53,556 nucleotides of DNA from Alphaproteobacteria bacterium (GCA_013288575.1 JABDBO010000001.1:91-53646), one strand, 5' to 3'. Shown: positions 13,643 to 38,187, counted from the stretch's first letter. Numbers and translations: made by a program. The notes: generated from the sequence alone by a model not told the origin.

Positions 13643-13748
13643 TGGTTGGCTCCTTTTTAGGTTAAAACGGGTATAGCGCACCGAAATGCGCAAAACCCAG
13701 GATTTTAGGAGCAAGATATGTGCCGGGCCAAGGCTAACTGCGGGTTTG

Positions 13749-14552
13749 CTAACTGACGCTCTCAGCGCTGTAGCGGGCAATTAGGCCGGTTTTTAGGGCG
13801 TGGTTGTAAATCTTAACGAAACACCAACAGGCGAGCATTATATATATAAGCGCAAGGGCGGCGGCGATTATAAGTGACTGAATTGAAATTCCATTTCCGG
13901 CAATAATTGAGCGCATATTTTCAAACACATATGATGGCGGAAAAATATGGGCAACAGCCTGCATCCATGAAGGCAAAGTTGAGAGCGGGTAAAACACGCC
14001 GACAAATGGCGCAATCACCGCCGGAATCGGCCAGACAAACCATTCTGAACTTGGGCCATAACGCAGCATTATCGCACAGCCGAAGATCCCCAAGCTAATG
14101 CTGAACAGAACAATCACTAATATGAATGGAATTATCATCACGCCATAAATTAACATCGACAGGCCGAACACTCCCATCGCAAGAATCAACATAACAACCA
14201 GCCCGAACATGCTGGTGGTAATTCCCGTCAAAACTAACCCGCTCAAATATTCCGATACACGCATCGGCGAGGCGAAGAGGTTTAAAAAATTGCGGCTCCA
14301 GCTATCTTCCATAAACGCCATGCTAGTGCCGTGCATAACACGCACCATAAATTCCCAAACCAAAACTGTGCCAAGTACCATCGGCACGAAATTCATATTG
14401 GTATGAGTAAATTCATTGAGGAATTTTGTCATAAAACCCCAGATGACGATGTCAATTGCCTGCCAGATAAAAAGCGGAATAACGCGCGTGACGCTGCCGC
14501 GAATAAGATAAAACTGGCGAAGCATAAGCGCGGTGATGCGGGATGTTTTCAT
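13749..14552 (-). CDS. ABC-2 type transporter permease
   Basis: 267 aa with about 6 TM helices. Its start overlaps the stop of the ATPase gene (TAATG). It shows the typical ABC-2 exporter pairing. Confidence 0.8.
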   Translation of the reverse strand: MKTSRITALMLRQFYLIRGSVTRVIPLFIWQAIDIVIWGFMTKFLNEFTHTNMNFVPMVLGTVLVWEFMVRVMHGTSMAFMEDSWSRNFLNLFASPMRVSEYLSGLVLTGITTSMFGLVVMLILAMGVFGLSMLIYGVMIIPFILVIVLFSISLGIFGCAIMLRYGPSSEWFVWPIPAVIAPFVGVFYPLSTLPSWMQAVAHIFPPSYVFENMRSIIAGNGISIQSLIIAAALALIYIMLACWCFVKIYNHALKTGLIARYSAESVS

Positions 14553-15378: not shown

Positions 15379-17301
15379 ATGAAAACACGCCATATTATTC
15401 GTTCCACCGCCATTGCTTTGGCAATTATAATCACCTCAGGCAATGCCGCATTGGCAGATCCACCAGCACGGGTTGGGCGTTTGAGTTATATGGATGGCAC
15501 AGTATCATTTCACACCGGTGACCAGGATCAATGGGCACAGGCAACGATGAATTATCCGATCACAAATGGTGATGCGCTTTGGACAGAACCGGATTCACGC
15601 GCGGAAGTGCAGGTTGGCTCGGCGGAAATTCGGCTCGACCAGTCTACGGAAGTTGATGTTATAAAACTTGATGATACTGGTACTCAATTGCAAGTTCCGC
15701 AAGGCGTGGTGAATGTGCATTTGCACCGTGAAATGCCACATGGTGGTGTGCAGGTGTTTACGCCAAATGGTGAAATTGATTTGGTAAAACCAGGCAGCTA
15801 TCACATTGATTCTGGACAACCGAACGGTGATCAGCCGGCAGCCCAAGTTACAGCAACCGTATTGGAAGGCGAAGTGAACATCGCTGCGCCGCATGCAAGC
15901 GTTGCAGTTCTCGCCGGTGAATCAGCAGTTTTAACTGGTAACCCGCCATCATTCTCATTGCAGGAAGGAAACGCAACTCCGTTTGATAACTGGGCGCTCT
16001 CGCGTGAAAAACGTGAAGTGACGCCGCTGGCGACAACTTATGTTCCGCAAGGAATGACAGGTTATCAGGATTTGGATAGTTATGGTAATTGGGGCAGTGA
16101 CCCAGAGTACGGTGTTGTGTGGTATCCAACTGCGACAATCGCACCGGATTGGGCACCATATCGTTATGGCCACTGGGCCTATGTTGCACCTTGGGGTTGG
16201 ACATGGGTTGATGATGCAGCTTGGGGCTTTGCACCATTCCACTATGGACGCTGGGTGCAAATTAATAACCGCTGGTGCTGGTCGCCAGGTGAGCGCCATT
16301 TCCATCCAGTTTATGCGCCTGCACTCGTTACCTTCATCGGTGGTAATGGCTGTAATGTAAGTTCGAGTCCAGCAGTTGGTTGGGTGCCGCTTGCTCCGCG
16401 TGAAGTTTATCATCCGTATTATAATGTCAGTGTTGATTATGCGCGCCGCGTCAATGGAGCTTATGTAAATAAAACCGTGGTGAATAATATTACCATCAAT
16501 AATATTCATAATAATTCCGACCATTTTGCTAACCGTGGTTTTGCAACTGTAGTTACGGCAAAAGCTTTTACTAATGCAGAACCTGTGCATAAGTCTTTGG
16601 TGAATGTGAGACCGGATGAAATTGCTAAAGCGCCGGTTACTCCGACAATTGAACATTTACAACCTGCACCTGCTGCGCGTGCACCAGGGCATGATTTGAC
16701 TACGGGAGCAAGAGCAGAGTTGCCGCATCATGACCAGAATCGTTTCCAGAATAGCCAGATGCGTGCTCCAGAAACGCCAAGAGTGGAACGTCCAACTGTA
16801 ACAACATCAACTGCACCGGCTGTGGTGAATGAGCGCTCTACACCGCAAGTGCAAGCTCCGGCAAACCAGCCAGTTGTGCCTCATCCATTTAATCAATCAG
16901 GAAACCAGTTTGCAAGACAGCCGAATATTATTCGCGGTGCTCAGCAATCAAATAATATTCAGCAGGAAGATAGGCATGATCACACGCCCGGTGCGCCGGT
17001 TGTACAAAGGCCAAGCATAGCTACGCCGGTAACACCACATGTTTCGGAACCTCAAGTATCGCAGCCACAAGTCGCGCAACCGCAAAGGCAGCAGTTCCAA
17101 AATATGCAGGTTAACCATCCGGTGCAGCAAACGCATATTGCACCAACTCCGCAAGGATGGCAGCGTCAGCAACAAGCTCCGCGTGTTGAGCAAAAGCAGC
17201 AAGAGCAGCCTCCTCGCCCGGAACGAGTGCCGCAACAACAAGCGCAGCCCCAGGCGAATGGTAACCAACGTGATTCACGCGACCCGCGTGACCAACATTG
17301 A
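15379..17301 (+). CDS. Secreted FecR-like / W-rich repeat (DUF6600-like) protein with a Q/P-rich C-terminal region
   Basis: Signal peptide (AIIITSGNAALA), then an N-terminal beta-rich FecR-like segment (GRLSYMDGTVSF...AEVQVGSAEIRL). A Trp-rich block follows (YGNWGSDPEYGVVWYP...YRYGHWAYVAPWGWTWVDDAAWGFAPFHYGRW). The last ~200 aa are Q/P-rich and low in complexity. Confidence 0.65.
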   Translation: MKTRHIIRSTAIALAIIITSGNAALADPPARVGRLSYMDGTVSFHTGDQDQWAQATMNYPITNGDALWTEPDSRAEVQVGSAEIRLDQSTEVDVIKLDDTGTQLQVPQGVVNVHLHREMPHGGVQVFTPNGEIDLVKPGSYHIDSGQPNGDQPAAQVTATVLEGEVNIAAPHASVAVLAGESAVLTGNPPSFSLQEGNATPFDNWALSREKREVTPLATTYVPQGMTGYQDLDSYGNWGSDPEYGVVWYPTATIAPDWAPYRYGHWAYVAPWGWTWVDDAAWGFAPFHYGRWVQINNRWCWSPGERHFHPVYAPALVTFIGGNGCNVSSSPAVGWVPLAPREVYHPYYNVSVDYARRVNGAYVNKTVVNNITINNIHNNSDHFANRGFATVVTAKAFTNAEPVHKSLVNVRPDEIAKAPVTPTIEHLQPAPAARAPGHDLTTGARAELPHHDQNRFQNSQMRAPETPRVERPTVTTSTAPAVVNERSTPQVQAPANQPVVPHPFNQSGNQFARQPNIIRGAQQSNNIQQEDRHDHTPGAPVVQRPSIATPVTPHVSEPQVSQPQVAQPQRQQFQNMQVNHPVQQTHIAPTPQGWQRQQQAPRVEQKQQEQPPRPERVPQQQAQPQANGNQRDSRDPRDQH

Positions 17302-17302
17302 T

Positions 17303-17743
17303 TTAAGTAGTTTTTAGATTTTTTAAATAATGGCTGAGCTTGGCGCGCAGCTCAATGTTGCTGAATGGTTTTGAGATATAATCATTCATTCCATTAGAAA
17401 TGCATTTTTCCTGATCACCAATCAGCGTGAGTGCGGTCATGGCAATTACCGGCACTTCTGCGCGACTCATATCTTTTTCAATTTGCCTGATTTGTTGAGT
17501 GGCCTCATAACCGCTTAAGCCATTCATATGGACATCCATTAAAACTAACGAGTAATTATTGGTGCGATATTTTTCAACCGCTTCTACGCCATCATGGGCG
17601 ATATCATAATCATAACCAAATTCATCCAGCCAAGCTTTTGCGACCAGAATGTTTGATTGCTCATCTTCAACTAATAAAATCTTTGCCATTTCTAACAAAG
17701 ATTCCTTAATGGTTGTAGATGATTTAGTCATAGAAATCGCCAT
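17303..17743 (-). CDS. Single-domain response regulator (CheY-like receiver)
   Basis: KILLVEDE, the phospho-acceptor context LVLMDVHMNGLSG, VIAMTA and YISKPF. There is no output domain. Confidence 0.85.
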   Translation of the reverse strand: MAISMTKSSTTIKESLLEMAKILLVEDEQSNILVAKAWLDEFGYDYDIAHDGVEAVEKYRTNNYSLVLMDVHMNGLSGYEATQQIRQIEKDMSRAEVPVIAMTALTLIGDQEKCISNGMNDYISKPFSNIELRAKLSHYLKNLKTT

Positions 17744-18013: not shown

Positions 18014-18164
18014 CAAACCTATTGATATTTTTGATATAAAAACACATTTGCTTTAAGCTTCTGTTAATTTCTTTTTATTATTATACAACCATAAGTCGAG
18101 TATCTTCAATAGGATAATCTTCTTGGGGTTGAAGGTAAAAAAGATAAAAAAATGGGAGTTAAGG

Positions 18165-18728
18165 ATGAAATTAGGTAAATTTTTTAAGTTAGGATTTGTA
18201 CCATTATTAACGGGTAGCTTATTGGCAACAAATGCTCTTGCTGCATCAAACGGTACTTTAGGGGCAACATCTACCGGTACGGTAAATATTAGTATTACGA
18301 AATCCATGCAGGCACAAATTTCGGATATTACTGATATGGTATTGGCAAGCTGGAATATCGGTGACCCGGCAGTACAATTATATAGCAACTTGTGTATTTA
18401 TTCCTCTACGGGCAATTATAAAGTAACGGCAACTGGTAGCGGAACTTCGAACGCTTTTACAATTTCAAACGGCACTTCGACAATTCCATATAGCGTGGTT
18501 TGGAACTCTGGCCCGGCAGGTAGTTTGGCGAGCACCGGCACTTCACTTACAACGAACACACAATCTGGCGCATTTGCAAATGCAAGCATGGCAGCGGCAA
18601 ATTGCGGTGGTTCGACAAATGATACGGCACGAGTAGTAGTGAATATTCCGCAAGCAACCATGCAAGCAGCTCCTGGTAGTGCAACTGCATATACCGGCAC
18701 GCTTACCATGTTAGTGACACCGAACTAA
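18165..18728 (+). CDS. Fimbrial subunit of a chaperone-usher system (SCPU/Csu-type or DUF4402-like), 187 aa
   Basis: AAGGA SD, and a signal peptide ending in NALA. It has an N-terminal alternating hydrophobic strand (GTVNISITKS) and two Cys, and it ends in YTGTLTMLVTPN. It is paralogous to the next ORF. Confidence 0.65.
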   Translation: MKLGKFFKLGFVPLLTGSLLATNALAASNGTLGATSTGTVNISITKSMQAQISDITDMVLASWNIGDPAVQLYSNLCIYSSTGNYKVTATGSGTSNAFTISNGTSTIPYSVVWNSGPAGSLASTGTSLTTNTQSGAFANASMAAANCGGSTNDTARVVVNIPQATMQAAPGSATAYTGTLTMLVTPN

Positions 18729-18729
18729 A

Positions 18730-19212
18730 ATGAAACGGCTGCTGCTTAGCCTGGTGATTGTTTTAAGTTTCGCGCAAGCAGCTAATGCATTGTTGTTTGT
18801 AAGGCTCACCGGGATGCAGGATATAAATTATACTGGATGGGTAATTGGCAATGGAGCAATTACTAGTTCGCAAGATGTTTGCGTTTACAGCACTCTTGCG
18901 CTTGGCAGCCCGTATGCAATTACGGTGACTGGTTCTGGCGGATTTAATTTGGTGAGTGGTACTAATAATTTGGCCTACACAATTACCTGGGATGATTCGG
19001 GGCCGGGAAGTTTAGGCTCGCATCCAATTAATTTAACCAGCGGCGTGAAAGTGCAAAATTTGCAGAACGCGAATTTCAATTTATTTCATGATGATTGCAG
19101 CGTTGAAGGCATGAATGCGCGGCTGACTTTTTCAATCACTCAAGCAGCGATGATGGCAGCGCCAGCAGGAACATATACTGGCACATTGACTATCCTTCTC
19201 TCGCAAACTTAA
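18730..19212 (+). CDS. Fimbrial subunit paralog, 160 aa
   Basis: Signal peptide ending in AQA. It shares blocks with the preceding ORF: C(I/V)YS, Y.(V/I)T(A/V)TGSG, Y(S/T)(V/I).W(N/D)(S/D)GPGSL and AAPG..YTGTLT(M/I)L. Confidence 0.65.
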   Translation: MKRLLLSLVIVLSFAQAANALLFVRLTGMQDINYTGWVIGNGAITSSQDVCVYSTLALGSPYAITVTGSGGFNLVSGTNNLAYTITWDDSGPGSLGSHPINLTSGVKVQNLQNANFNLFHDDCSVEGMNARLTFSITQAAMMAAPAGTYTGTLTILLSQT

Positions 19213-19309
19213 GTTATAATTAACTTATATATTTCAATTAGATAATAACAATATTTTAATTCATTTCCTGTACAACTATAGGTAGAAAACAATTTTTGCC
19301 AAGTAGGTT

Positions 19310-21709
19310 ATGGGGAATTTTTGCAGGTATTTGCAGATGATTTTTTTAAGCGCTTTTTTATGTGGCGCTTATTCATCTGCGCATGCTGAAATTTTTGTAA
19401 AACCTGGTGCTCCTGCAAGCTTTGCTGATATGGAAAAACCAAAAGCAACAGTAGTTGATGTTTTCTTCGGTGGAAAATCTATCGGCAGTTTCAAAGGAAA
19501 ATTTTCGCCAACAAGTTTTTGGTTTGATGCGCCGGAAAAAATTATTGCCAAACTCGATAATGTAAAAGATGAAAACAAAATCCAAGTGCAAAGTGCATTA
19601 GGCGCCGAGTTACCAAATAACGCCGGTCAAATTTGCCGCAAATATCAGGAAAAAAATTGCGGCATATTAAGCCCGGAAGTTACTGGAGTGATTTTTGACG
19701 AAGAAAAATTCCGCGTCGATATTTTCATCAACAAAGATTTTTTGAAACTACAGGATAATTCTTCTGCGCGATATCTGCCGGGTGCCGAGCAGAAGTTTTC
19801 ATCCATTCTCGGTTTAAGTGGCGCAGTTGCCGGCAGCACTAATGCGCAAACTAATTTTACTATCAATGACAACACAACTTATTCATTCGGCGAAACCAAC
19901 CTCAACACGCAAAGCTCAGTTTCCAACCAGGGTTTGCGTTTTGATAACGTTGTAGCCAGCCGCGATATTGAAGGCGTAAATCAGCAAGCTGGGCTTTTTA
20001 GAAGCCGGGCGATGCAATTAATTCCTGACCATGATATGGCAGGCGTGGCAATTTCCACTTCGATGAATACGCGGCTTGATGCGCATAAGGTGCAGGGTAA
20101 TGATGTTGCGGTTTATTTGCCGCGCCGCTCGTGGGTTTCAATTTACCGCGACGGAAAATTATATTCTTCGAATTTCTATGAAGCCGGCAACCAACTCATC
20201 GACACCACAGAATTGCCGGAAGGTGCATATTTCATTACGCTTCATATTCAAGGCTCCGATGGTTCGGTAACGGAAGAGCGCCGCTTCTTCGCCAAATCAC
20301 CAGATCTGCCGCCGCCAGGTGATCCGGTATATTATGCTGAAGGTGGCGTTATCAGAAAACCGGCGCAGCTTGATGACACGATGCCAAATATCACTGATCA
20401 TCCGATTATGCGCTTAGGAACGGTGCAACGTTTAACTGAGTATTTGGGAGTGGACACCGGCCTTCTCGGTCTTGATGACCAAGTGGCAGGCGAGGCGAGT
20501 TTCTTTGGTATGTATGACGGGCAAAAAATTCGCACTTCCATAATGAGTAGCTCACGTGGTGATTATGGTCTGCAGGCTTCTTATGAAGCAATTTTTGATA
20601 AACTCTCCGTTTCAATGGATACGCGTAAAGTATGGGCGGGGGATGATAGGCACCCGGCTTATGACCCGGTTAGCAATGGGTTGGCGCAAACTACAGCGAC
20701 AATCAATTACCAGATTACGCCTGATCTAACCGCTAGCGCGCATTATAATAACAGTTGGCAAGAAAATTCATCAACGCAAAATTCTTATGGCCCTGGCTTG
20801 GAATACTACGCTTGGCGGAGTGGAGAAAATAGTTTGGCCTTCACGACTGATGTTAGCAAAACAAATCAGGGTGTGGTTGGCACAGCATTCGTTCGCTTTA
20901 GCATGAAACTTGGTGAGTGGGGATTAAGCGGCACGACAGGTGCCACCGCTGGCGGCAGTAACCATGGTGAAATGGGTAATGTGCACGGAACCTGGAGCGA
21001 TGATAAATCAATCGATCATAAAACGCTGGCGGGAATTGGTTTTGATTCTGACCGCAATAGCAGAAGTATTGGTGGTGATATTCAATATAATGACAATTTC
21101 GGCATGGCCAAAGGCAATGTGCAAGAAGCACAAAATACGAACGGCAATATGTTGAACTATGGCGGCCAATTTAATTTTGGCGTGGCGCAAGTAGGTGACC
21201 GCATCGAAGTTGGCGGCGATAGAATGGATTGGAGCGCAGTGATTGTTGACGTTACAGGTGATGCCGGAATTCCGATGCAGATTATGGTCAACAACATCCC
21301 GCGCCAAAATGTGATGCCGGGCACAAGCCAGACAATTTATCTATCCCCTTACCAAACTTATGCGGTGCGAATAGTCGCGGCCAAAGATGGTTTGTATGAT
21401 TATGACACCGGCAACCGCGCTGTGACACTTTATCCTGGCAATGTAACCAAGTTGGAATGGGAGGTGGATAAAGCGGTTTTATTAGTTGGGCATGTGGTTG
21501 ATAAGGATGGAAATATATTAGTGAACGCAACTTTATTGGCGGGTAAAAACCAGATTGTTACCAATGAAGATGGTCGCTTCCAGGCTGAAGTTCACTCGGC
21601 TAAAACGCTACAATTCCAGAAAGATGATGTGATATGTACCGTAACTCTGCCGCTAGCAGAAGAAAAGAATGGCGTACTAGTTTATAGAGATAAGTTGGTG
21701 TGTGAGTAA
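19310..21709 (+). CDS. Outer-membrane usher-like protein, 799 aa
   Basis: Signal peptide, a size appropriate for a large beta-rich usher, and a C-terminal beta-sandwich-like segment (VGHVVDKDGNILVNATLLAGKNQIVTNEDGRFQAEV). Its position after the pilin genes and next to the chaperone also supports the call. The family (classical versus TcfC/CooC-like) is not resolvable by eye. Confidence 0.6.
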   Translation: MGNFCRYLQMIFLSAFLCGAYSSAHAEIFVKPGAPASFADMEKPKATVVDVFFGGKSIGSFKGKFSPTSFWFDAPEKIIAKLDNVKDENKIQVQSALGAELPNNAGQICRKYQEKNCGILSPEVTGVIFDEEKFRVDIFINKDFLKLQDNSSARYLPGAEQKFSSILGLSGAVAGSTNAQTNFTINDNTTYSFGETNLNTQSSVSNQGLRFDNVVASRDIEGVNQQAGLFRSRAMQLIPDHDMAGVAISTSMNTRLDAHKVQGNDVAVYLPRRSWVSIYRDGKLYSSNFYEAGNQLIDTTELPEGAYFITLHIQGSDGSVTEERRFFAKSPDLPPPGDPVYYAEGGVIRKPAQLDDTMPNITDHPIMRLGTVQRLTEYLGVDTGLLGLDDQVAGEASFFGMYDGQKIRTSIMSSSRGDYGLQASYEAIFDKLSVSMDTRKVWAGDDRHPAYDPVSNGLAQTTATINYQITPDLTASAHYNNSWQENSSTQNSYGPGLEYYAWRSGENSLAFTTDVSKTNQGVVGTAFVRFSMKLGEWGLSGTTGATAGGSNHGEMGNVHGTWSDDKSIDHKTLAGIGFDSDRNSRSIGGDIQYNDNFGMAKGNVQEAQNTNGNMLNYGGQFNFGVAQVGDRIEVGGDRMDWSAVIVDVTGDAGIPMQIMVNNIPRQNVMPGTSQTIYLSPYQTYAVRIVAAKDGLYDYDTGNRAVTLYPGNVTKLEWEVDKAVLLVGHVVDKDGNILVNATLLAGKNQIVTNEDGRFQAEVHSAKTLQFQKDDVICTVTLPLAEEKNGVLVYRDKLVCE

Positions 21710-21714
21710 CTAAA

Positions 21715-22398
21715 TTAAAATTCCTTCTTCTCTAATTTCTCACCATCCCAGATAAAATAAGTTGCGGTAGTAGAGAAGGGGAGTTCCATGCTTGTTTCCT
21801 GCCCAGGATAGATGCGAGTAAGCGGCAGCGGTTTGCAATCTTTCTTCTCAACTGGGTCTACGCATTGTTCGCCTGATTGCAAAATAACATTTGTGTTACC
21901 GCTATTTTTAAAAGTGATTTTATTTCCGGTGCGGTTGCCGGTTAAATTTGGCGCTGGATTAAGTGGGCGGACAATCACCAGCGCTTCATAACCGATCAAA
22001 ACTTTCAGTGCCATTTTGGAATTTGATGAAACATCATTTATTACCGGTTTAATAATTACGCGATAAATATGCTCGCTATCATCGGCATCTCTTAAAAGCA
22101 CGAAGCGCATATTTTTTCTGCCGCCCGGTGGCAATATAGTTTTATCTGGCGTAACTAAAATTCCCGCGTCTTCAGGGTTTTTTATCTCAACATGTTTCTC
22201 ATTGGCCAGACCGGGGTTTTGCACTTCATAAACTTGGGTAATGATATAATCACTTTCCTGGCCCTGGCTGATAAGCTCAATATCTTGTTGCTTGGAATTC
22301 TTATTAAAATCAACAATGGCTGAACTTAAGATAAATGCAGCCTGCGCATTTGGTGTGGGAATTAAGAGTAAAATCAACGCTAGATATATTTTTTTCAT
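21715..22398 (-). CDS. Periplasmic fimbrial chaperone (PapD-like), 227 aa
   Basis: Signal peptide ending in AQA, the two-domain size, and LVTPDKTILPPGGRKNMRFVL resembling the PapD-like PP.f.l.pg..q.lRi strand. It is convergent with the usher with only a 5-nt gap. Confidence 0.6.
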   Translation of the reverse strand: MKKIYLALILLLIPTPNAQAAFILSSAIVDFNKNSKQQDIELISQGQESDYIITQVYEVQNPGLANEKHVEIKNPEDAGILVTPDKTILPPGGRKNMRFVLLRDADDSEHIYRVIIKPVINDVSSNSKMALKVLIGYEALVIVRPLNPAPNLTGNRTGNKITFKNSGNTNVILQSGEQCVDPVEKKDCKPLPLTRIYPGQETSMELPFSTTATYFIWDGEKLEKKEF

Positions 22399-27634: not shown

Positions 27635-28825
27635 TTAAACTTCTTGTCCAGGAGGGCCTTCCGGCTTTGGTGAAATTTTTGGGGATCCACCATTTCTAAT
27701 TTGACCGTCCTTGGAACACTGGACAAATCCTAGTTTTGCAATTTCTTCTGGTTTGAATGTTTTCAGTAGAGGGTCTGCCAGGCCATCAGGATATGCATAA
27801 CGCGGCACTATATAATCTCCGGCGCTCAGCTCTAATCTTTCTGCGCCCAAATATATGATTGTATCGATATTTGCTACAAAGGCTTGTGTTGGGCGTGGGC
27901 GAAGAGTGCCGTGAGCGGAATGTTTAGGTGAATCTGGTATGCCATAATCTTCCCAATCATTACTTCCAAATAAGCATGTTAAATCTAATATTTTCTTCGG
28001 ATCTAATGAACTTAATATCTGAGCAGGCTGCAACCCATCAACATAATCACCTTGGCGCAATAGAATTAGATCACCCCAGCCATTTTCTGCAGTCAGTATT
28101 GTGCCAGTGGGCTTTCCATCAATTATTTGTGGTATTTGCTGACCGGGTTCGACTCTTGCATATAAAATTCTAGCAGTTGGGCAAACTATATGTGTTTCGT
28201 CACATGCATCTTCAAACCAAATGGTTCGCTTTTGAGAAAAAGTTGGGGCGCCGTCATATTGAAGAAATTCTTCACTGCCTTGGATGAAGCTTCTGTCATT
28301 ATTATGTCTGGTAAAAAGAATTGTTCCATCGTTGTGAATATGAAGATTAAAGTTTGGCATAATTCCAATCCAACTACCAATTCGAGAGTTTTGTGTATTT
28401 GGTCTTGAGCCGAAGCCATGTTCCATTAATAATTCAGATAAGCCACCAGGGAGGACTTCTTCATCACGCGAATTTATTACTACGGTAACGCAGCTCACAT
28501 CTTCGTGCTCATAAAATCTAGCGTCAGGAACTTCACCAAACATTTCAACCATGCCGGTTAACTTTAGTCCATCTTCTGACTGAAAGCTTGTTGGGCGTCC
28601 ATATATTCTGCTTCGTGTAAGAAGATCAGCTATATCTTCAACTAAAGCCTTTCTTTCTGGCGCACCAAATAAAGCACGTCTTTCTGTAATTGCTTTTTTA
28701 GCTATAGCATTTGCTTTCTCTGCATGATCGGCCATGCTGCCAAATAAGCAAATATTTTCACTTGCCAATAATTCGCGGACAATTAATTCAGATGCGGCGT
28801 AAACTTGTTGTACATGATGTGTCAT
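27635..28825 (-). CDS. Hypothetical protein, 396 aa (orphan inserted between proA and nadD)
   Basis: Long ATG-initiated ORF. I see no signal peptide, TM segment or recognisable catalytic motif. Confidence 0.55.
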   Translation of the reverse strand: MTHHVQQVYAASELIVRELLASENICLFGSMADHAEKANAIAKKAITERRALFGAPERKALVEDIADLLTRSRIYGRPTSFQSEDGLKLTGMVEMFGEVPDARFYEHEDVSCVTVVINSRDEEVLPGGLSELLMEHGFGSRPNTQNSRIGSWIGIMPNFNLHIHNDGTILFTRHNNDRSFIQGSEEFLQYDGAPTFSQKRTIWFEDACDETHIVCPTARILYARVEPGQQIPQIIDGKPTGTILTAENGWGDLILLRQGDYVDGLQPAQILSSLDPKKILDLTCLFGSNDWEDYGIPDSPKHSAHGTLRPRPTQAFVANIDTIIYLGAERLELSAGDYIVPRYAYPDGLADPLLKTFKPEEIAKLGFVQCSKDGQIRNGGSPKISPKPEGPPGQEV

Positions 28826-30238: not shown

Positions 30239-31342
30239 TTATATAGTCAGAACTAGGTCATCGCGATGGATTAACTCGTCCCGTCCAGCGAAGCCAAGGA
30301 TTTTTTCGATTTCGGAGGATTTTTTGCCAATGATTTTCTTTGCATCCTCAATCGAATAAGCTGAGAGCCCGCGCGCTACTTCGCCATGTTCATTTTTGAC
30401 AATTACCAGATCACCACGTTCAAATTTACCGGTTACTTCTGTGGCTCCAGCTGGCAGCAGACTATTGCCTTTTGTGAGTGCCGTCACTGCGCCTTTATCA
30501 ATGATGATTTCACCCATCGGCTTTACGCCGGAAACAATCCATTTTTTGCGTGCCGTTAATGGGTTTACCGATGAAATAAAGCGGGTGAATAATTGCTTGC
30601 CAGAAATCAGATTTTTCAATGGGTTAACCTTATGGCCGTTGGTGATTATGCAATCACATCCTGAGCGCACAGCAATTTTGGCAGCTTCAATCTTGGTTTT
30701 CATGCCTCCAGTGCCGACTTTGCTGGTAGGGTCGCCTGCCATTTCTTCAATTTCAGTGGTGATTTTGGCAACTTCAGCTATGTGTTTGGCGTTTTTATTG
30801 GTAACTGGGTTGCTGTCATAAAGCCCATCAACATCAGAGAAAATAATCAAAAGATCAGCGCGGAGCATTTCGGCCACGCGGGCGGAAAGCCGGTCATTAT
30901 CGCCATAATTCAGCTCAGAAGTTGCTACCACGTCATTTTCATTGATAACTGGTATAATGCCCATTTTCAGCATGGTTTCCATAGCATCTTTTGCATTTAG
31001 GTAACTGCGGCGTCGCTCGGTATCCCAGGCGGTGAGCAGCACTTGTGCCACTTTCAGCGGCTTTAAAACACGAGAATAGCCTTGCATTAGCTCAATCTGC
31101 CCGCAGGCGACAGCCGCCTGTTTTTCCTCTAATTTGAGCTTACCCGTTGGTTTTCCGATATGTTTCCGGCCTAAAGCTACCCCGCCGCTTGTCACGATAA
31201 TAATTTCTTTACCCTGTTTTATCAGGCCGGAAATGTCAACAGCCAGGCTTTTGAGCCATTCCTCGCGGATTTCGCCGTTTTCCGAAGTAATAATCGATGA
31301 ACCCAGTTTTAGGACAATTCTTTGCAAATCATTAAAATTCAT
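30239..31342 (-). CDS. proB: Glutamate 5-kinase (with C-terminal PUA domain)
   Basis: 367 aa with IVLKLGSS, VTSGGVALG and a NENDVV block. The C-terminal ~90 aa are PUA-like. Confidence 0.95.
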   Translation of the reverse strand: MNFNDLQRIVLKLGSSIITSENGEIREEWLKSLAVDISGLIKQGKEIIIVTSGGVALGRKHIGKPTGKLKLEEKQAAVACGQIELMQGYSRVLKPLKVAQVLLTAWDTERRRSYLNAKDAMETMLKMGIIPVINENDVVATSELNYGDNDRLSARVAEMLRADLLIIFSDVDGLYDSNPVTNKNAKHIAEVAKITTEIEEMAGDPTSKVGTGGMKTKIEAAKIAVRSGCDCIITNGHKVNPLKNLISGKQLFTRFISSVNPLTARKKWIVSGVKPMGEIIIDKGAVTALTKGNSLLPAGATEVTGKFERGDLVIVKNEHGEVARGLSAYSIEDAKKIIGKKSSEIEKILGFAGRDELIHRDDLVLTI

Positions 31343-31407: not shown

Positions 31408-32610
31408 ATGTCATTATTTATCTACAAGGCGATGAACGAAATGGGCAAGACGGTGCGCGGTAAAATTACTGCCGCCAATGACATTGACCTTGAAACTCGC
31501 TTAAGAGGAATTGGGCTTGATTTACTCTCGGGCAGAGAAGTGAAAGAATCAAAAGCATTGTCACTATTCGGTGTAAAAACCAAAGATAAAGTTATGTTTT
31601 GTGCGCATATGGAACAACTCGATAAAGCCGGCGTGCCGATTCTTGATGCACTTGCAGACGTGAGAGATTCTACCGAGGCGCCAAAACTAAAAGACGTATT
31701 ATCCGATGTTTATGAATCAGTAAAAACGGGTATGTTGTTATCGGAAGCTATGGCTAAACATCCGCGAACGTTTGACGGTGTATTTTGCGGCTTGATCTCG
31801 GCTGGCGAGCGAACTGGTAATTTGCACGAATCATTCAAAAGTCTTGAGCATCACCTTAAATGGTCAGCAGAAATTAAACGTAAAGTCAGAAAAGCGGTTT
31901 CATATCCAATTTTCACTTTATTCGTAATGATAGGAACAATTACTATATTGATGCTTTATGTTGTTCCGCAAATCGTAAAATTCATTGAGTCAAATGGTCA
32001 AAAATTGCCTTGGCACACGCGTGCTTTAATTTCCACTTCTGAGTTCTTCGGTGATTTCTGGTGGCTTATTTTGCCAGTTCCATTTGGCTTTTTCGTTTCG
32101 GTGAGATTCTTAAAACGCGTCTCTTACAAATTTGCTTTTAACTGGGATAAGGTAATGCTCAAACTTCCTGTTTTGGGTAATCCATTCCGCAAAATTGATA
32201 TGGCGCGGTTTGTCCACTTTTTCAGCGTTCTTTATACTAGTGGTATTGATATCCTAGAATGTCTTAAAGTTGGCCAACAAGTGGTAAAAAATAAAGTATT
32301 ACTTGACTCCCTGGAGGGAGTAAGAAGGATTGTAGGCGAGGGTAATTCGCTTACCGGCGCACTAAGAATGTCTAACCAGTTTCCGGGATTAGTTATACGC
32401 ATGTTCAAAGTTGGTGAAGATAGCGGTAATATGAAGGAAGCTTTGGAGCATGTTAACTTCTTCTTTGATCGTGAAGTTAACGATTCGGTAGATAATATCA
32501 TAGGCGTCATTAAGCCTGCCCTTACGTTGATACTTGGTTTGTTGCTTGCCTGGATCGCCCTTGCGATGTTTGGCCCGCTCTACGACGGTATCAGCAAAAT
32601 TAAATATTAG
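31408..32610 (+). CDS. Type II secretion system F family platform protein (PilC/GspF-like)
   Basis: 400 aa with two repeats of the GspF-type domain (SEAMAKHPRTFDGVFCGLISAGERTGNL and GALRMSNQFPGLVIRMFKVGEDSGNM). It has 3 TM helices. Confidence 0.85.
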   Translation: MSLFIYKAMNEMGKTVRGKITAANDIDLETRLRGIGLDLLSGREVKESKALSLFGVKTKDKVMFCAHMEQLDKAGVPILDALADVRDSTEAPKLKDVLSDVYESVKTGMLLSEAMAKHPRTFDGVFCGLISAGERTGNLHESFKSLEHHLKWSAEIKRKVRKAVSYPIFTLFVMIGTITILMLYVVPQIVKFIESNGQKLPWHTRALISTSEFFGDFWWLILPVPFGFFVSVRFLKRVSYKFAFNWDKVMLKLPVLGNPFRKIDMARFVHFFSVLYTSGIDILECLKVGQQVVKNKVLLDSLEGVRRIVGEGNSLTGALRMSNQFPGLVIRMFKVGEDSGNMKEALEHVNFFFDREVNDSVDNIIGVIKPALTLILGLLLAWIALAMFGPLYDGISKIKY

Positions 32611-32651
32611 ACTAATAATTAGACGCGATATTATAGCTAACCGGGCAGGAA

Positions 32652-34247
32652 ATGGATTTAAGGAAGAAGAAAGGTAAGGCAATCAAGAATCAGTTCGTCT
32701 TAAGCGTGGGCGATGAAGGTGCCATTCTCTGCCATTATCATGATGGATCGCTCGCTAACCGGTTTTTTGTTGATTCGCCATATTCGCCTGATGTCAAACT
32801 CATAGAAAAGCTCACCTCGACTTATCCGAAATCACCAATCAGTATATTGGTCGATGTTATCGAGCAAAACTACTCGCAGCAGGTTTTACCCCCGGTTTCA
32901 TCATGGGGTGTAAAGCAGCAAGTCAAACGCCGGATTAAGCGTGATTTTCAACCAAATGATCTTAATAATACGCTATTGCTTGAAAGATCAAAAGAAGGCC
33001 GCCGTGATTGGAATTTTCTATTTATTTCCCTCGCAAATAGTGATCCGTTTGCTAAATGGCTGGAAATCGTATTAGCGCAAAAAAATGATTTTAAAGGCGT
33101 TTTCCTTTTACCAATTGAAGCAACCGAATTTACTAAAGATCTTTATTCGGTTTCGCTCAAAGAAAACCAAGGCGAATGGAAGCTTTTAGTTTTGCACAAT
33201 AAGGTTGGTGGTTTTCGTATTGTTGCTTTTAAAAATGGCAAATTGATTTTCACACGACTCGCGCAGAATTTAATCGGCGACAATATCGCAGAAATTGTTG
33301 TTGGTAACATGGAGCAGGAAATTTCCAACACGGTAGAATATTTAAAGCGCCTTGCTTTTAAAGGTGAAGCAGATAGCCATTTAACAATTATAGCTGGCGC
33401 TGATATCCTGCAAAAGATTGATCCCAAAACTCTAAAATTCGGGCAGGTTGATTTAATTACTCCATTTGAAGCATCAGAGAAATTAAACTTACCGGAAGCT
33501 GTTACTGATAAAGATAAATTTGCCGATGTATTACTCGCGACCTATTTTTCCAGTTCTAAAAAACATGTTTTAAAATTTACTTCTAACGTTACGCAAAAAG
33601 TTGAGGCGTTATATAATTCCATTAAAGGAATTTATGCAGCTGCCGCGCTAATATCTCTTATAATCATAGGTTTTGCCGCATCTGATGCTTATGATATAAA
33701 GCAGAAATTGGACGATAAAGATCAGGCCGACGCGCATTTGTTGCAATCAACAAATATGTTAAGTGCAGCCAAGGCAAAGAAAGATAAACTACCAAAAAAT
33801 ATCGATAAGATGCTCGATATTATGAGTTTATCTAAAATGCTTTCGGAAGATAAGCTCAGAGAAATAAAACTTATAAGCGACATTGCGCCGGTATTTAATG
33901 ATAAATTTACAGTTACGTCGGTTGAGTATGTCAGCCGTTTACCTGATGCTGCGAGCACGTCAAACCATCCAAAGGCAGATGCTCAAGCGGGAGATAGCAC
34001 TAAGACATCTTCTTTTACATTTTCAATTGATATGAATTTTTATATCTCTGCTCATGACCAAGATTTGATGAACAACATAAGCGGTAATTTTTTAAATCAG
34101 ATTGCGGCGTTATTTCCTAATTATAAAGTTTCCTACGCATCTCCTCCACTAGTGCCAACGCAAGGGCAATATGAATCAATTGTTCCATCTGATGATGGCC
34201 ACATATTTCCTGTTTCTGCTAAAATTTTGATAACAGGAGAGCTCTGA
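32652..34247 (+). CDS. Bitopic protein with PilM-PilN / GspL-like architecture, 531 aa
   Basis: A ~320-aa cytoplasmic part starts FVLSVGDEGAIL, which is like the first strand of an actin-like ATPase fold. A single TM helix follows (IYAAAALISLIIIGFAA), then a coiled coil and a ~150-aa periplasmic domain. It sits between the GspF-like and PilO/GspM-like genes. Confidence 0.5.
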   Translation: MDLRKKKGKAIKNQFVLSVGDEGAILCHYHDGSLANRFFVDSPYSPDVKLIEKLTSTYPKSPISILVDVIEQNYSQQVLPPVSSWGVKQQVKRRIKRDFQPNDLNNTLLLERSKEGRRDWNFLFISLANSDPFAKWLEIVLAQKNDFKGVFLLPIEATEFTKDLYSVSLKENQGEWKLLVLHNKVGGFRIVAFKNGKLIFTRLAQNLIGDNIAEIVVGNMEQEISNTVEYLKRLAFKGEADSHLTIIAGADILQKIDPKTLKFGQVDLITPFEASEKLNLPEAVTDKDKFADVLLATYFSSSKKHVLKFTSNVTQKVEALYNSIKGIYAAAALISLIIIGFAASDAYDIKQKLDDKDQADAHLLQSTNMLSAAKAKKDKLPKNIDKMLDIMSLSKMLSEDKLREIKLISDIAPVFNDKFTVTSVEYVSRLPDAASTSNHPKADAQAGDSTKTSSFTFSIDMNFYISAHDQDLMNNISGNFLNQIAALFPNYKVSYASPPLVPTQGQYESIVPSDDGHIFPVSAKILITGEL

Positions 34248-34972
34248 TGAAATTTCAGCAATTGCAGAAACGAGTAATTAAAATTGGGGTTGTATGCACA
34301 GCCATAGTTATTTTGTTGGGAATTGGCTATTATTTTGTTTCTAATTATCAAGATAAACTTGTCCAGCAAATTGCTGAAGAGAAATCTAAAACCTCGGCTA
34401 ATCAAGCCCAGACTAAAATTATTGAAAAACAAGTTTTAGATGCCAAAGATGCGCTGGTTTTTTATAATGACTTCAATGACTCAGGCAACTCCGATCCGCA
34501 AAATTTCCGTCGTGATTTCGCCAAAAACCTGCTCATGAAACTTAAAGATAGCAATAATATTATGGATTTGAAATTCACTATGGATCAGTTCACTAAACTA
34601 GGTGACCAATATACAAAACCGACAGTTGCTGTATATTCGAGCAAGGTTAGTGTGCCATTTTCGGCGATTTCTGATATTGATGCATATAACCTGATTAAAA
34701 ATATCAGCGATGCATTTCCTGGCGATGTGAAAATTTTATCTTACAATGTGAAAAAAACTAGGGACATAAATGACGAAAATCTTATACAACTTAGTACGGG
34801 CTCGCTTCCTGATGGATTTATAACTGGAGAGATGACCTTCGAATGGCGAAGCATTCAAGATAACCCTGATTATAAAGCTAAAGCTGAGGGCCAAGCGCCT
34901 AATGCTAATGCAAAACCTCGTGCAGCTACACCACCGCGTCTAAATCCACTTAAGGCGGCACCAAATGGCTAG
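34247..34972 (+). CDS. PilO/GspM-like bitopic protein, 241 aa
   Basis: Short cytoplasmic N-terminus, a single TM helix (IGVVCTAIVILLGIGYYFV), a coiled coil and a compact periplasmic domain. Its start overlaps the upstream stop (TGATG). Confidence 0.5.
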   Translation: MKFQQLQKRVIKIGVVCTAIVILLGIGYYFVSNYQDKLVQQIAEEKSKTSANQAQTKIIEKQVLDAKDALVFYNDFNDSGNSDPQNFRRDFAKNLLMKLKDSNNIMDLKFTMDQFTKLGDQYTKPTVAVYSSKVSVPFSAISDIDAYNLIKNISDAFPGDVKILSYNVKKTRDINDENLIQLSTGSLPDGFITGEMTFEWRSIQDNPDYKAKAEGQAPNANAKPRAATPPRLNPLKAAPNG

Positions 34973-36521
34973 ATTTTATAAATATATATCTTGTCTTGCG
35001 GTGCTTAGTGTTATGGTACCGGCACTATCATTAGCTGTTGATAATCAACCGGCCGCGCCAACTGCAACTGAGCAGCCATCAATTATACAAGCATCGCCTT
35101 CAGCGCCTACGCCAACTGTAGCAACAACGCCAGCACCTACTTTGGCCCCAGTTCCAGATAATTCTGCGACACCAGTGCCTGCTGCTATATCAGCGCCTCA
35201 AACTGCACAAACTGCTCCGCCCCAAGCTCCTATTGCGCCAAGAACTTTAAAATCAATTACTGACACAATTCCAAACAATAATAATAAACCATCAGTGCCG
35301 ATAGTAGTGAATTTTGACAAAAGTTTGATGTTTAAAAAGGAAGATCTTAGTAAAGCTAGGATGATTTATAATGCCTATATGGGAAGGCAAAAAAATAATC
35401 AGGCTGTTGTTAAAAATGATGAGGATAGTAAAGTTGATGAAATTCTTGGCCGTCTTGCACGAGATAAAAAGGAGCTGCCAAAACCGCCAAATGGAATTTA
35501 TTTAAATTCGATATTATTCCGCTCAGCTGGGCAAGCAGAAGCTTGGATCAATGGAAAAAAATATGAAATTTCAGGCGTAGAAAACGGAATTAAATTGGCA
35601 GACGTTTCGCCATACCGCGCAAATATTATTTTTGATAGTTCTCGCTACGATTTTGATTTCAATAAATGGGTAGATGCGTTTAGCGGTGATCCAAATTCGC
35701 TGCCGCCAAACCGTAAAGATATAAAGGTTGATACAACAACACATTCAATTATGTTTTCTCTCCATCCTAACCAGCGCCTTGATTTTAATGAATTAGCGAT
35801 AAAAGAAGGCAAGCCGCTACTGGTTAAAGAAGGAAGTAAACCTGCTGATGGTAAACAAGCAAATGATAAGTCACTCAATGGTAAACCATTGGCTAATAAT
35901 GCGCCGATAGATGGTAAGGATTCGTTCGTTGAAAATGTGCCTGCTAATGAATTTTTCAAAACTCCGCAAGAGATGATGAAGATGCTTGATGAATGCCAGA
36001 AAGACCCTTCAGCACCCGACTGCGTTAATAAAATCAAGCCAAATACTAAATATGAAATCCGCTATGCTCAGGATAAAAACGGCAATAATATTAAAGATAA
36101 GGATGGCAACCTAATTGTTGAGCAAAGTGATGTGCCGGATATGCCTGCGGCAAAACAAGCGAATTTTAAAGTTGCGCCAGATGGGCATTTTTACATTCCA
36201 GCTGATTTAAACCAACAAACAATCAATTTCAAAGTTGATACTGGGGCAACAATTACTGCCATTTCAATTGATGATGCGAAAAAAGCGGGGATTGATGTGG
36301 GCAAGCTTAATTATAACCAAGACGTAAAATTAGCCGATGGTACAATTGTAAAAGCGGCAATGACCACGATAGATAATTTTGCGGTAGGGCCAATTAAATT
36401 ATCTGCTGTGAATATATTAGTTGCGCAAGGCACGATGGACCAACCGTTACTTGGTATGAGCTTCTTCAATAAGTTAAAACGCTTTACGATTGAAGGCGAT
36501 ACACTTACTTTGTTCCAATAA
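34965..36521 (+). CDS. Secreted or anchored protein with a Pro/Ala/Thr-rich linker, a GspB/PilP/MshK-like ING motif and a C-terminal retropepsin-like aspartic protease domain
   Basis: Signal peptide (ISCLAVLSVMVPALSLA), with the P/A/T-rich linker at residues ~28-95. LNSILFRSAGQAEAWINGKKYEISGVENGIKLADV spans 35490-35639. INFKVDTGATITAI has its catalytic Asp codon at 36237-36239, and LLGMSFFNKL lies near the C-terminus. Confidence 0.7.
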   Translation: MARFYKYISCLAVLSVMVPALSLAVDNQPAAPTATEQPSIIQASPSAPTPTVATTPAPTLAPVPDNSATPVPAAISAPQTAQTAPPQAPIAPRTLKSITDTIPNNNNKPSVPIVVNFDKSLMFKKEDLSKARMIYNAYMGRQKNNQAVVKNDEDSKVDEILGRLARDKKELPKPPNGIYLNSILFRSAGQAEAWINGKKYEISGVENGIKLADVSPYRANIIFDSSRYDFDFNKWVDAFSGDPNSLPPNRKDIKVDTTTHSIMFSLHPNQRLDFNELAIKEGKPLLVKEGSKPADGKQANDKSLNGKPLANNAPIDGKDSFVENVPANEFFKTPQEMMKMLDECQKDPSAPDCVNKIKPNTKYEIRYAQDKNGNNIKDKDGNLIVEQSDVPDMPAAKQANFKVAPDGHFYIPADLNQQTINFKVDTGATITAISIDDAKKAGIDVGKLNYNQDVKLADGTIVKAAMTTIDNFAVGPIKLSAVNILVAQGTMDQPLLGMSFFNKLKRFTIEGDTLTLFQ

Positions 36522-36648: not shown

Positions 36649-38187
36649 ATGACTGATTATTCCCAAGCAAAATCCTGGCCCTTCATTGAGGCTCGTAAAA
36701 TTCTAGACCGCGTTACCAAAACGCCGCCGAAAAAAGGCTATGTGCTTTTTGAAACCGGCTATGGCCCATCGGGTTTGCCGCATATCGGAACATTTGGTGA
36801 AGTTGCGCGCACAACTATGGTGCGCCATGCTTTTCAGCAATTGTCCGATCTTCCAACCAAATTATTCTCAGTTTCCGATGATATGGATGGGCTCCGCAAA
36901 GTGCCGGAAAATTTACCAAACCAAAAAATGCTCGAAGAAAATTTGGGCAAACCATTTACCAGCGTACCTGATCCGTTTGGCACCCATGAAAGCTTCGGCG
37001 CGCATATGAATTCGCGCCTACGCGCGTTTCTCGACCATTTCGGTTTTGATTATGAATTTAAAAGCGCTACCGATCTTTACAAAAACGGCACTTTTGATGC
37101 TACGCTTTTAACCGCGTTAAAACGCTATGACGCGATCATGAAAATCATGATTCCAACCTTGGGGCCAGAACGCCAGGCGACTTATTCACCGTTTTTACCC
37201 ATCAGCCCAAAAACGGGCAGGGTGCTTTATGTGCCTACAATTCCAAATGCTGAAAAAGGCACAATCAGTTTCAAAGACGAAGATGGAACTGAAACCGAAC
37301 TGCCAGTCACCGAGGGTCACTGCAAACTCCAGTGGAAACCGGATTTCGGCATGCGTTGGGCAGCACTTGATGTTGATTTTGAAATGTATGGCAAAGACCA
37401 CTTGGTCAACGGTAAAATCTATTCCGCTATATGCAAAACGCTAGGTGGCACCCCACCTGAGCAATTTAATTTCGAATTATTCCTCGACGAAAAAGGCGAA
37501 AAAATTTCCAAATCGAAAGGTAACGGCCTCACGATTGATCAGTGGCTCACCTACGCAAGCTCTGAAAGCCTTGCGCAATATATGTTCGTCAATCCACAGA
37601 AAGCGAAAAAATTATATTTTGATGTCATTCCGAAAAACGTTGATGAATATTTGACCTGGGTAAAAAAATATAATGAAGCGCCAGATGTTGATAACCCAGC
37701 ATGGCATGTGCATAGCGGCAAAGTTCCAAAAGTCGAGAGCGACATTACTTTTGCATTGCTCATCAACCTGGCCAGTGCCTGCAACCCGGAAGATAAATTA
37801 ATCCTTTGGGGCTTCATCAGCAAATATGATGCGAACGCAAACCCGGCAACCTGCCCGATGCTCGATAAACTTGCCGGTTACGCGGTAAAATATTATGATG
37901 ATTTCGTAAAACCGCACAAAAAATACCGTACGCCAAGCGAAAAAGAAAAGGCTGCATTTATTGAGCTTGCAGATGAAATGCCAAAACTTCCGGAGCCAAA
38001 CGCACAAACTATTCAGCAGTTAGTTTACGATATCGGCACGAAACATGGTTTTGAGAATATGCGTGAATGGTTCTCGGCAATTTACGAAGTGCTTTTAGGT
38101 GCGGAACAAGGCCCGCGCGCAGGCAGTTTCTTTGCCCTATTTGGCGTGAAAGAAAGCGTTGCTTTAATACATAGTAAGACAAAATAG
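36649..38187 (+). CDS. lysK: Lysine--tRNA ligase, class I
   Basis: 512 aa with GLPHIGTFGEV (HIGH-type) and KISKSKGNG (KMSKS-type). These are typical of the class I LysRS found in alphaproteobacteria. Confidence 0.92.
   Translation: MTDYSQAKSWPFIEARKILDRVTKTPPKKGYVLFETGYGPSGLPHIGTFGEVARTTMVRHAFQQLSDLPTKLFSVSDDMDGLRKVPENLPNQKMLEENLGKPFTSVPDPFGTHESFGAHMNSRLRAFLDHFGFDYEFKSATDLYKNGTFDATLLTALKRYDAIMKIMIPTLGPERQATYSPFLPISPKTGRVLYVPTIPNAEKGTISFKDEDGTETELPVTEGHCKLQWKPDFGMRWAALDVDFEMYGKDHLVNGKIYSAICKTLGGTPPEQFNFELFLDEKGEKISKSKGNGLTIDQWLTYASSESLAQYMFVNPQKAKKLYFDVIPKNVDEYLTWVKKYNEAPDVDNPAWHVHSGKVPKVESDITFALLINLASACNPEDKLILWGFISKYDANANPATCPMLDKLAGYAVKYYDDFVKPHKKYRTPSEKEKAAFIELADEMPKLPEPNAQTIQQLVYDIGTKHGFENMREWFSAIYEVLLGAEQGPRAGSFFALFGVKESVALIHSKTK

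Follow-up and report, generated by a model that had tools for sequence, protein, structure and literature searches.

The genes of type IVa pili (T4aP) are typically scattered around the genome, and two related machines have been described as arising with PilT loss: the type II secretion system (T2SS), out of T4aP, and the mannose-sensitive hemagglutinin (MSHA) pilus, found in few Proteobacteria only (PMC10191384). PulL/GspL of the T2SS has been described as a PilM-PilN fusion (PMC10191384). In Rickettsiales, type IV pili were inferred to be ancestral, with a possible role in attachment to hosts (Schön et al. 2022, PMC9352585; Castelli et al. 2024, PMC10847448). PilA, PilB, PilC, PilD, PilT and the secretin family K12282 mshL occur in most basal Rickettsiales taxa, and a family mostly matching the PilM and PilN profiles occurs in three taxa only (PMC9352585 supplementary file 18); the K12282 mshL annotation is carried by 90% of the Rickettsiales secretin-family members (PMC9352585 supplement). 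No widespread PilMNOP-type link between the inner and outer membranes appears in that inventory. Because the PilM/PilN-matching family is limited to three taxa, the Rickettsiales alignment subcomplex is effectively unassigned. Here we analyze a block of four genes, g1 to g4, in a 53,556-nucleotide stretch of DNA from an alphaproteobacterium (GCA_013288575.1), hereafter called the window. We conclude that this block probably encodes the inner-membrane platform and the alignment subcomplex of a type IV pilus ancestral in Rickettsiales-like Alphaproteobacteria, split from the ATPase genes in this lineage. The reading with the best support is that of a type IV pilus system of Rickettsiales type that is dispersed and retractile, and whose partner genes would lie in other parts of the genome; pilB, pilT, pilD, pilins and a secretin would accordingly be expected in this genome.

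The block represents a portion detached from a conserved pilB-pilC-g2-g3-g4 cluster. When GTDB species genomes were scanned with the g2 alignment, 72 loci were recovered, 71 of them titled Alphaproteobacteria, Rickettsiales or similar and one (L054) titled Legionellales; Candidatus Arcanobacter lacustris is represented. Seeds from the window and a single Pfam-annotated relative served to annotate the open reading frames (ORFs) of these relatives. The gene order pilB-pilC-g2-g3-g4, with pilB immediately upstream, is found in about 60 related loci, and most of these continue with a ~246-amino-acid (aa) ATP-binding cassette (ABC) ATPase followed, on the opposite strand, by two pilT genes and a TPR gene. 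The PilT proteins of the relatives score above the TIGR01420 cut-off (424 and 484 bits vs 319), their PilB combines MshEN with T2SSE and carries the MshE-type cyclic di-GMP (c-di-GMP) motif (63 bits vs 38), and the TPR protein has a sub-threshold resemblance to PilW/Tgl. The ABC-type ATPase has no adjacent permease (for example, 13561-14301 in L001, with an equivalent position in most of the ~60 loci), and no counterpart of it was seen beside the block in the window.

The window falls into a subclade of nine lineages (the window, L003, L076, L077, L078, L079, L082, L083 and L084). In 9/9 the block lies between proB and lysK, with petABC following, and pilB is not adjacent. Prepilin genes are located within 5 kb of the block in three of the nine: two in L003, three in L079 and one in L082. 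Their leader is M-K/R-R-G|FTLVEL, and the pilins of L003 pass the TIGR02532 cut-off. The protein in L082 (4472-5953, beginning MRRGFTLVEL) is a modular prepilin of 493 aa with Cys-rich C-terminal repeats. In the window, a 396-aa orphan ORF (27635-28825, minus strand) sits between nadD and proA, at the very position of the prepilin genes of L003 and L082; it has no Pfam match and no homologue in ~80 loci.

The preliminary description of this DNA had left two possibilities side by side, a dispersed filament system and a reduced or repurposed module. The former is supported by the relatives: about 60 loci with pilB upstream, most with two pilT genes, and close relatives with prepilins beside the block. 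The distribution of the four-gene block can be stated in the same terms, as ~60 related loci with pilB upstream and nine lineages at the proB/lysK site. It is very unlikely that the block here is a remnant or a repurposed module, whose partners were lost and whose proteins decay or serve another envelope function, such as anchoring a protease. All four ORFs are full-length, are joined by stop/start overlaps and keep all family-invariant residues; the same arrangement is maintained across nine lineages at 44-57% g2 identity to the window (highest in L082, 57%), three of which have prepilins beside the block; and scattered genes are the typical state of T4aP (PMC10191384). Some observations would fit a remnant: the 53.6-kb window holds no partner genes, the pilB adjacency of ~60 relatives was lost in the window subclade, type IV pilus components were lost repeatedly in Rickettsiales (PMC10847448), and the position of the prepilins of L003 and L082 is taken by the unrelated orphan ORF. 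This explanation is weakened by intact, translationally coupled ORFs conserved in nine lineages. Since the ORFs are intact and syntenic in these lineages, a decaying duplicate is likewise unsupported.

Four ORFs are present at 31408-36521, all on the plus strand (Table 1), and the block is divergent from proB, with lysK as the next gene. Stop and start codons overlap at two junctions: g2 and g3 have one base in common (TGATG at 34247), and g3 and g4 overlap by 8 nt (ATGGCTAG at 34965-34972). The spacing between g1 and g2 is 41 nt, and a GGAG Shine-Dalgarno motif stands directly 5' of the g1 ATG. Between 31000 and 36800, promoter and terminator candidates were just as numerous as expected from shuffled sequence, and an Rfam scan of the window found tRNA-Val only. 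The searches for partner genes covered the 53.6-kb window. No T2SSE-type ATPase was found there by phmmer with PilB and PilT of the relatives as queries, no class III leader (G|F-x-x-x-E) in any ORF by a six-frame regular-expression search, and no secretin or prepilin peptidase with E. coli GspD/HofQ and GspO as queries. The T4aP hallmark pair, PilB and PilT, is absent from the window and adjoins the orthologous block in ~60 relatives. With the ORFs, the junctions, the topologies and the missing partner genes all as first described, the factual part of the preliminary description is confirmed.

The protein g1 is a member of the T2SSF-domain GspF/PilC platform family, as had been proposed. It matches Pfam PF00482 (T2SSF) in two stretches (6.9e-43; 146 bits vs a cut-off of 25.2), and hydropathy indicates three membrane segments. 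Its match to NCBIfam GspF TIGR02120 (4e-90, 302.9 bits) lies under the equivalog cut-off of 424, and PilC models reach ~225 bits vs a cut-off of 700. As the scores are under every equivalog cut-off, the subtype, GspF or PilC, is not assignable.

The sequences of g2, g3 and g4 were searched as single proteins, family members, consensus sequences and profiles against Pfam, NCBIfam and PDB sequences. Among these searches, only the C-terminal domain of g4 passed any threshold, so that a comparison of the four proteins with pilus and T2SS models, proposed earlier as a check, succeeded for g1 (T2SSF) and gave nothing above threshold for the other three. The protein g2 had been described as a bitopic protein with PilM plus PilN (or GspL) topology, which stands at the level of fold and fails at the level of sequence models. 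As a single protein, g2 matched nothing in Pfam, NCBIfam or PDB sequences; the PilM and T2SSL models of Pfam and NCBIfam matched neither g2, nor 53 family members, nor the family consensus; and phmmer with E. coli HofM and GspL did not recover it. Sporadic T2SSM matches were sub-threshold (4/53 members, best 0.0057).

An AlphaFold2 model of g2 built on 53 homologues is confident, with a mean predicted local distance difference test (pLDDT) score of 87.9. In a Foldseek search against PDB, PilM structures were the best matches (5eou, 2ych and 3jc8 at 1.6e-10 to 3.8e-10, target TM-score 0.51-0.59), followed by FtsA and then by the cytoplasmic domains of GspL/EpsL (4pht and 1yf5, ~1e-7, target TM-score 0.60). 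Residues invariant in the family include G20, G23, D68, Q72 and D98. The C-terminal part of the model comprises H312-379, H384-414, E419-429, E454-466, H467-487, E492-497 and E518-530, where H denotes helix and E strand. Judged from the model, g2 has the architecture of a PilM-PilN fusion or of GspL. A profile search of 1.84 billion representative proteins recovered 2112 clusters at E <=1e-3 and 635 at <=1e-30, with clusters defined at 50% identity. The g2 family is therefore a large one that lacks a database model, and not a rare one.

The protein g3 has no Pfam or NCBIfam match. Hydropathy places one membrane helix at residues 13-31; a predicted coiled coil, a predicted alpha/beta domain and a Pro-rich tail follow. 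When the g3 profile (64 sequences) was aligned with the g2 profile by hhalign, residues 36-160 of g3 corresponded to residues 357-491 of g2 with a probability of 88.6% and E 2.6e-6, while the negative controls (g3 vs g4 and g4 vs g2) gave 0.7% and 0.3%. On the strength of this profile alignment and its controls below 1%, g3 is a paralogue of the periplasmic half of g2, related to it as PilO to PilN, or as GspM to the C-terminal part of GspL. In 68 loci g3 directly follows g2 without exception. The PilN, PilO, T2SSM and T2SSM_b models gave no above-threshold match to the g2 and g3 families, the g3 consensus reaching E 0.12 against T2SSM (sub-threshold). Against single E. coli GspM, HofN and HofO, which as single-sequence templates have low power, the g3 profile gave hhalign probabilities of <=1%. 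The earlier proposal of a PilO/GspM-like bitopic protein thus agrees with a single-pass g3 that is homologous to the g2 periplasmic half.

The fourth protein, g4, consists of a signal peptide, a linker rich in Pro and Ala, a helical segment in which an S-L-x-F motif is conserved, a conserved beta-rich core, a second linker and a retropepsin domain. The N-terminus is MARFYKYISCLAVLSVMVPALSLA|VDN, with a signal-like hydrophobic segment at residues 7-25 by hydropathy. The only Cys, residue 10, lies within this segment and not after a lipobox-type tripeptide, and the family consensus A-x-A-Q corresponds to a signal peptidase I-type site. In the core, pLDDT is ~88-96 over residues 171-280; Q270, E281 and G282 are invariant, and W191 and W223 near-invariant, in the family alignment. 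PF16537 T2SSB (GspB_C) was matched by 8/60 family members (best E 0.001), and the g4 consensus aligned with model positions 2-53 of 60 (E 0.055; 13.6 bits vs a cut-off of 28.4). The T2SSB-like region is the first half of the core, residues ~175-226, and contains 'AWINGKKY'. No PDZ domain was found by Pfam. The full AlphaFold model has a mean pLDDT of 59% overall, which is low because of the long linkers and the shallow alignment for the protease domain, and a Foldseek search with this full model gave no PDB match to the core at E <0.001. The g4 profile scored <=1% in hhalign against E. coli GspB, GspC and HofP, again single-sequence templates of low power. The homologue search returned 2 matches with full-length g4, since low-complexity words filled the candidate list, and 23 with the trimmed core alignment. 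Because the T2SSB matches are sub-threshold and no PDB fold match is significant, the assignment of the core to the GspB/PilP type is tentative. Of the earlier claim of a secreted protein with a GspB/PilP/MshK-type ING motif, secretion and a recurrent T2SSB match stood; the match remained below threshold, and a PilP fold was not confirmed by structure search.

Compared with PilMNOP and PilC of T4aP (Pseudomonas, Myxococcus, Neisseria and Thermus), the block has a T2SSF platform, an actin-like domain closest to PilM, two paralogous single-pass proteins, each with a coiled coil and a small alpha/beta domain (for g3, as predicted) and a fourth, periplasmic beta-rich protein; its relatives have PilT-family ATPases in their clusters and short-leader prepilins nearby. 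It differs in that a single chain, g2, combines the PilM and PilN parts, that there is no sequence match to the PilM_2, PilN, PilO and PilP families, and that the order is pilB-pilC-MN-O-P as opposed to pilMNOPQ with the secretin. Further, PilP is a lipoprotein, whereas g4 has a signal peptide without a lipobox and a core without a detectable PDB match, and in four lineages of the window subclade g4 carries a protease domain.

Could the block instead belong to a T2SS that secretes folded proteins by means of pseudopilins, its four members being GspF, a GspL-type fusion, a GspM-like protein and a GspB/GspC-like one? We regard this as quite improbable. The GspL-type arrangement (an actin-like domain, a membrane helix and a ferredoxin-like domain in a single fused chain, followed by a smaller paralogue) is shared, GspF is the best NCBIfam match of g1, T2SSB is the only recurrent Pfam signal of g4, and the N-termini of the L003 pilins also match GspG and GspH. 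All of these matches are below the family thresholds, however, and g1 itself falls under the GspF equivalog cut-off. The cytoplasmic domain of g2, at ~300 aa, is nearer to PilM (333-356 aa) than to the GspL cytoplasmic domain (224-238 aa). In most of the relatives' clusters there are two PilT/PilU-family retraction ATPases above cut-off, and the neighbouring prepilins are large (223-493 aa), one of them modular and Cys-rich, unlike the small GspG-K set. It is these PilT genes and large modular pilins that weaken the T2SS explanation. When ~80 loci were searched by phmmer with 15 E. coli Gsp/Hof proteins, only GspE, GspF, GspG (N-terminus) and GspO gave matches, besides two marginal HofN matches that were pilC ORFs (E ~0.002). 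A GspO-like peptidase was present in 2 loci; no secretin was found within 10 kb in any locus, and no locus had a gspG-K operon, a GspD-type secretin, a GspC with PDZ or, within 10 kb, a GspA/ExeA-like homologue.

The latter result also bears on a third possibility, that the system is an MSHA-type pilus (type IVe pilus, T4eP) in which g2, g3 and g4 correspond to MshI, MshJ and MshK. MshI is PilM/PilN-like, and MshK carries a GspB-type domain. We consider this identity unlikely. Two pilT genes stand in the relatives' cluster, and MSHA lacks PilT by origin and is narrowly distributed, as introduced above. MshM, which we take to belong to the GspA (ExeA-like) family, would be expected among the homologues that are lacking near the block. 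The published MSH model requires mshM as a mandatory gene (PMC6668835). The gene order differs from that of MSHA (MshI-MshJ-MshK-MshL-MshN-MshE-MshG), and g2 to g4 have no NCBIfam or Pfam match, Msh models included. The resemblance lies in the MshE-type c-di-GMP motif of the relatives' ATPase, in a TPR protein in the cluster, like MshN, and in the mshL annotation (K12282) of the Rickettsiales secretin family in the literature. MshEN also occurs outside MshE, for instance in a glycosyltransferase of the window (4138-5961).

Several points count against a dispersed type IV pilus as well. The 53.6-kb window lacks genes for an ATPase, a pilin, a prepilin peptidase and a secretin; the GspF model gives g1 a better score than the PilC models do; the fold of g3 is deduced from its sequence; g4 has no lipobox, unlike PilP, and its core found no significant match in the structure search; and none of the PilM/N/O/P, GspL/M/C/B or Msh models matches the sequence of g2, g3 or g4 above threshold.

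The C-terminal retropepsin domain of g4 (Table 1) had been overlooked in the preliminary description. Its match to TIGR02281 (1.4e-29) is at 102.7 bits vs a cut-off of 57.95, and Pfam Asp_protease_2 matches at 4.4e-21. In a phmmer comparison with the structures of Rickettsia conorii APRc (5c9b/5c9d), the domain matched at 3e-16 with the DTGA motifs aligned. By sequence, the C-terminus of g4 is unambiguously an APRc-like retropepsin domain. The fusion is present in the window, L003, L076 and L078 and absent from L077, L079 and L084; the count leaves out L082 and L083, where the g4 gene is not covered. Among the g4 orthologues compared, the slices of L076 and L078, though not that of L003, covered the DTGA motif, and both keep it. 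APRc and most TIGR02281 proteins are short and membrane-anchored. The likeness to APRc (RC1339) and TIGR02281 is that of the C-terminal 116 residues of g4, above cut-off and with DTGA kept; the difference is that the g4 domain is fused to the C-terminus of a putative pilus-machine periplasmic protein, in four lineages only. We also considered whether this protease could be the prepilin peptidase, and rejected it. Enzymes of the latter type are polytopic membrane proteins, belong to another family of aspartic proteases and cut their substrates on the cytoplasmic side, whereas the g4 domain is predicted to be a soluble retropepsin behind a signal peptide.

Drawn by analogy with T4aP and T2SS, the mechanism of the proposed dispersed pilus would be as follows; the contacts among g1 to g4 and their partners, and a role for the protease, are predictions. 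The platform protein g1 (PilC/GspF) would be the site where pilins leave the membrane. The cytoplasmic actin-like domain of g2 would hold PilB, with its MshE-type c-di-GMP-binding N-domain and encoded elsewhere, on this platform, while in the periplasm g2 would pair, through its coiled coil and alpha/beta domain, with its paralogue g3, like PilN with PilO or GspL with GspM. The beta domain of g4, similar to GspB or to a homology region (HR) domain, may connect this ring to the outer-membrane secretin, and the two PilT-family ATPases, adjacent in relatives, would power pilus retraction. In the subclade with the fusion, the g4 retropepsin would place a dimerization-dependent aspartic protease in the periplasm at the pilus machine. 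Candidate substrates are g4 itself (autoprocessing), pilins or adhesins, and secretin-associated proteins.

A more far-reaching proposal is that the Rickettsiales-type pilus forms a distinct type IV filament subclass, whose alignment subcomplex, made up of a fused PilM-N protein, a PilO-like protein and a GspB-like connector, has diverged past sequence recognition and whose connector recruited an APRc-like retropepsin in one subclade. Though unlikely in our estimate, it would accommodate the mixture of features from T4aP (PilT), T2SS (the GspL-type fusion and the GspB-type domain) and MSHA (the MshE-type ATPase, the MshL-type secretin and the TPR protein). It would imply a protease built into the pilus machine, perhaps processing pilins, adhesins or host-facing surface proteins in passage. 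If true, the APRc that stands alone in pathogenic Rickettsia could be a remnant of, or related to, a protease associated with the pilus.

Elsewhere in the window, 18123-22398 holds a further pilus locus, which is unrelated to the block and of the alternate chaperone-usher type (Table 1). The glycosyltransferase gene at 4138-5961 encodes a 607-aa protein in which an N-terminal MshEN (c-di-GMP-binding) domain is fused to a family 2 glycosyltransferase, and is the sole weak 'PilB-like' match in the window. In the relatives' PilB, the MshEN region is also matched by a model of the c-di-GMP-activated glycosyltransferase NfrB; this suggests that the 607-aa protein is NfrB-like in architecture. The gene at 15379-17301 encodes a secreted protein of 640 aa, with FecR and DUF6600 domains and a long tail rich in Gln and Pro, and is flanked by a gene that, from its translation only, is response-regulator-like (17303-17743). 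The ORF at 13031-13780 (minus strand) is of low complexity, rich in Ser, Ala and Thr, and contains a short His-Gly run (HHHGGGHH); it shows no obvious domain and is possibly not a true gene.

Table 1. Positions of the four-gene block, its predicted domains, its neighbours and the chaperone-usher locus, counted from the first nucleotide of the window.
Feature	Position	Strand	Description
g1	31408..32610	+	GspF/PilC-type polytopic platform protein, 400 aa, two T2SSF repeats
g2	32652..34247	+	putative fused PilM-like/PilN-like single-pass membrane protein, GspL architecture, 531 aa
g2 cytoplasmic domain	32691..33581	+	predicted actin-like (PilM/GspL-cyto-like), residues ~14-310; pLDDT >90, Foldseek
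g2 transmembrane helix	33627..33683	+	residues 326-344; Kyte-Doolittle peak 2.11; inside model helix 312-379
g2 periplasmic region	33684..34244	+	predicted coiled coil and beta-beta-alpha-beta-beta domain, residues ~345-531; PilN/GspL-C-like
g3	34247..34972	+	putative PilO/GspM-like single-pass membrane protein, 241 aa
g4	34965..36521	+	predicted secreted modular protein, 518 aa
g4 conserved beta-rich core	35475..35819	+	residues ~171-285
g4 retropepsin-like domain	36168..36515	+	clan AA aspartic protease domain by sequence, residues 402-517, catalytic D425-T-G-A
proB	30239-31342	-	divergent upstream neighbour of the block
lysK	36649-38187		class I; downstream neighbour of g4; petABC beyond
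Chaperone-usher small secreted subunits	18123-18728, 18730-19212		no Pfam match
Usher	19310-21709		TcfC and CooC_C domains
Chaperone	21715-22398	-	PapD_N

The fusion of a putative pilus connector to a retropepsin is apparently undescribed, and gives a concrete hypothesis on the site of action of such periplasmic proteases. By position, by topology, by predicted fold in the case of g2 and by paralogy in the case of g3, the proteins g2, g3 and g4 are the obvious candidates for the unassigned alignment subcomplex of Rickettsiales. Three conserved, unannotated families would thereby be assigned to the PilMNOP-type role of linking inner and outer membrane. Such an assignment would improve the detection of these systems (MacSyFinder/TXSScan models) and the reconstruction of trait gain and loss in Rickettsiales.

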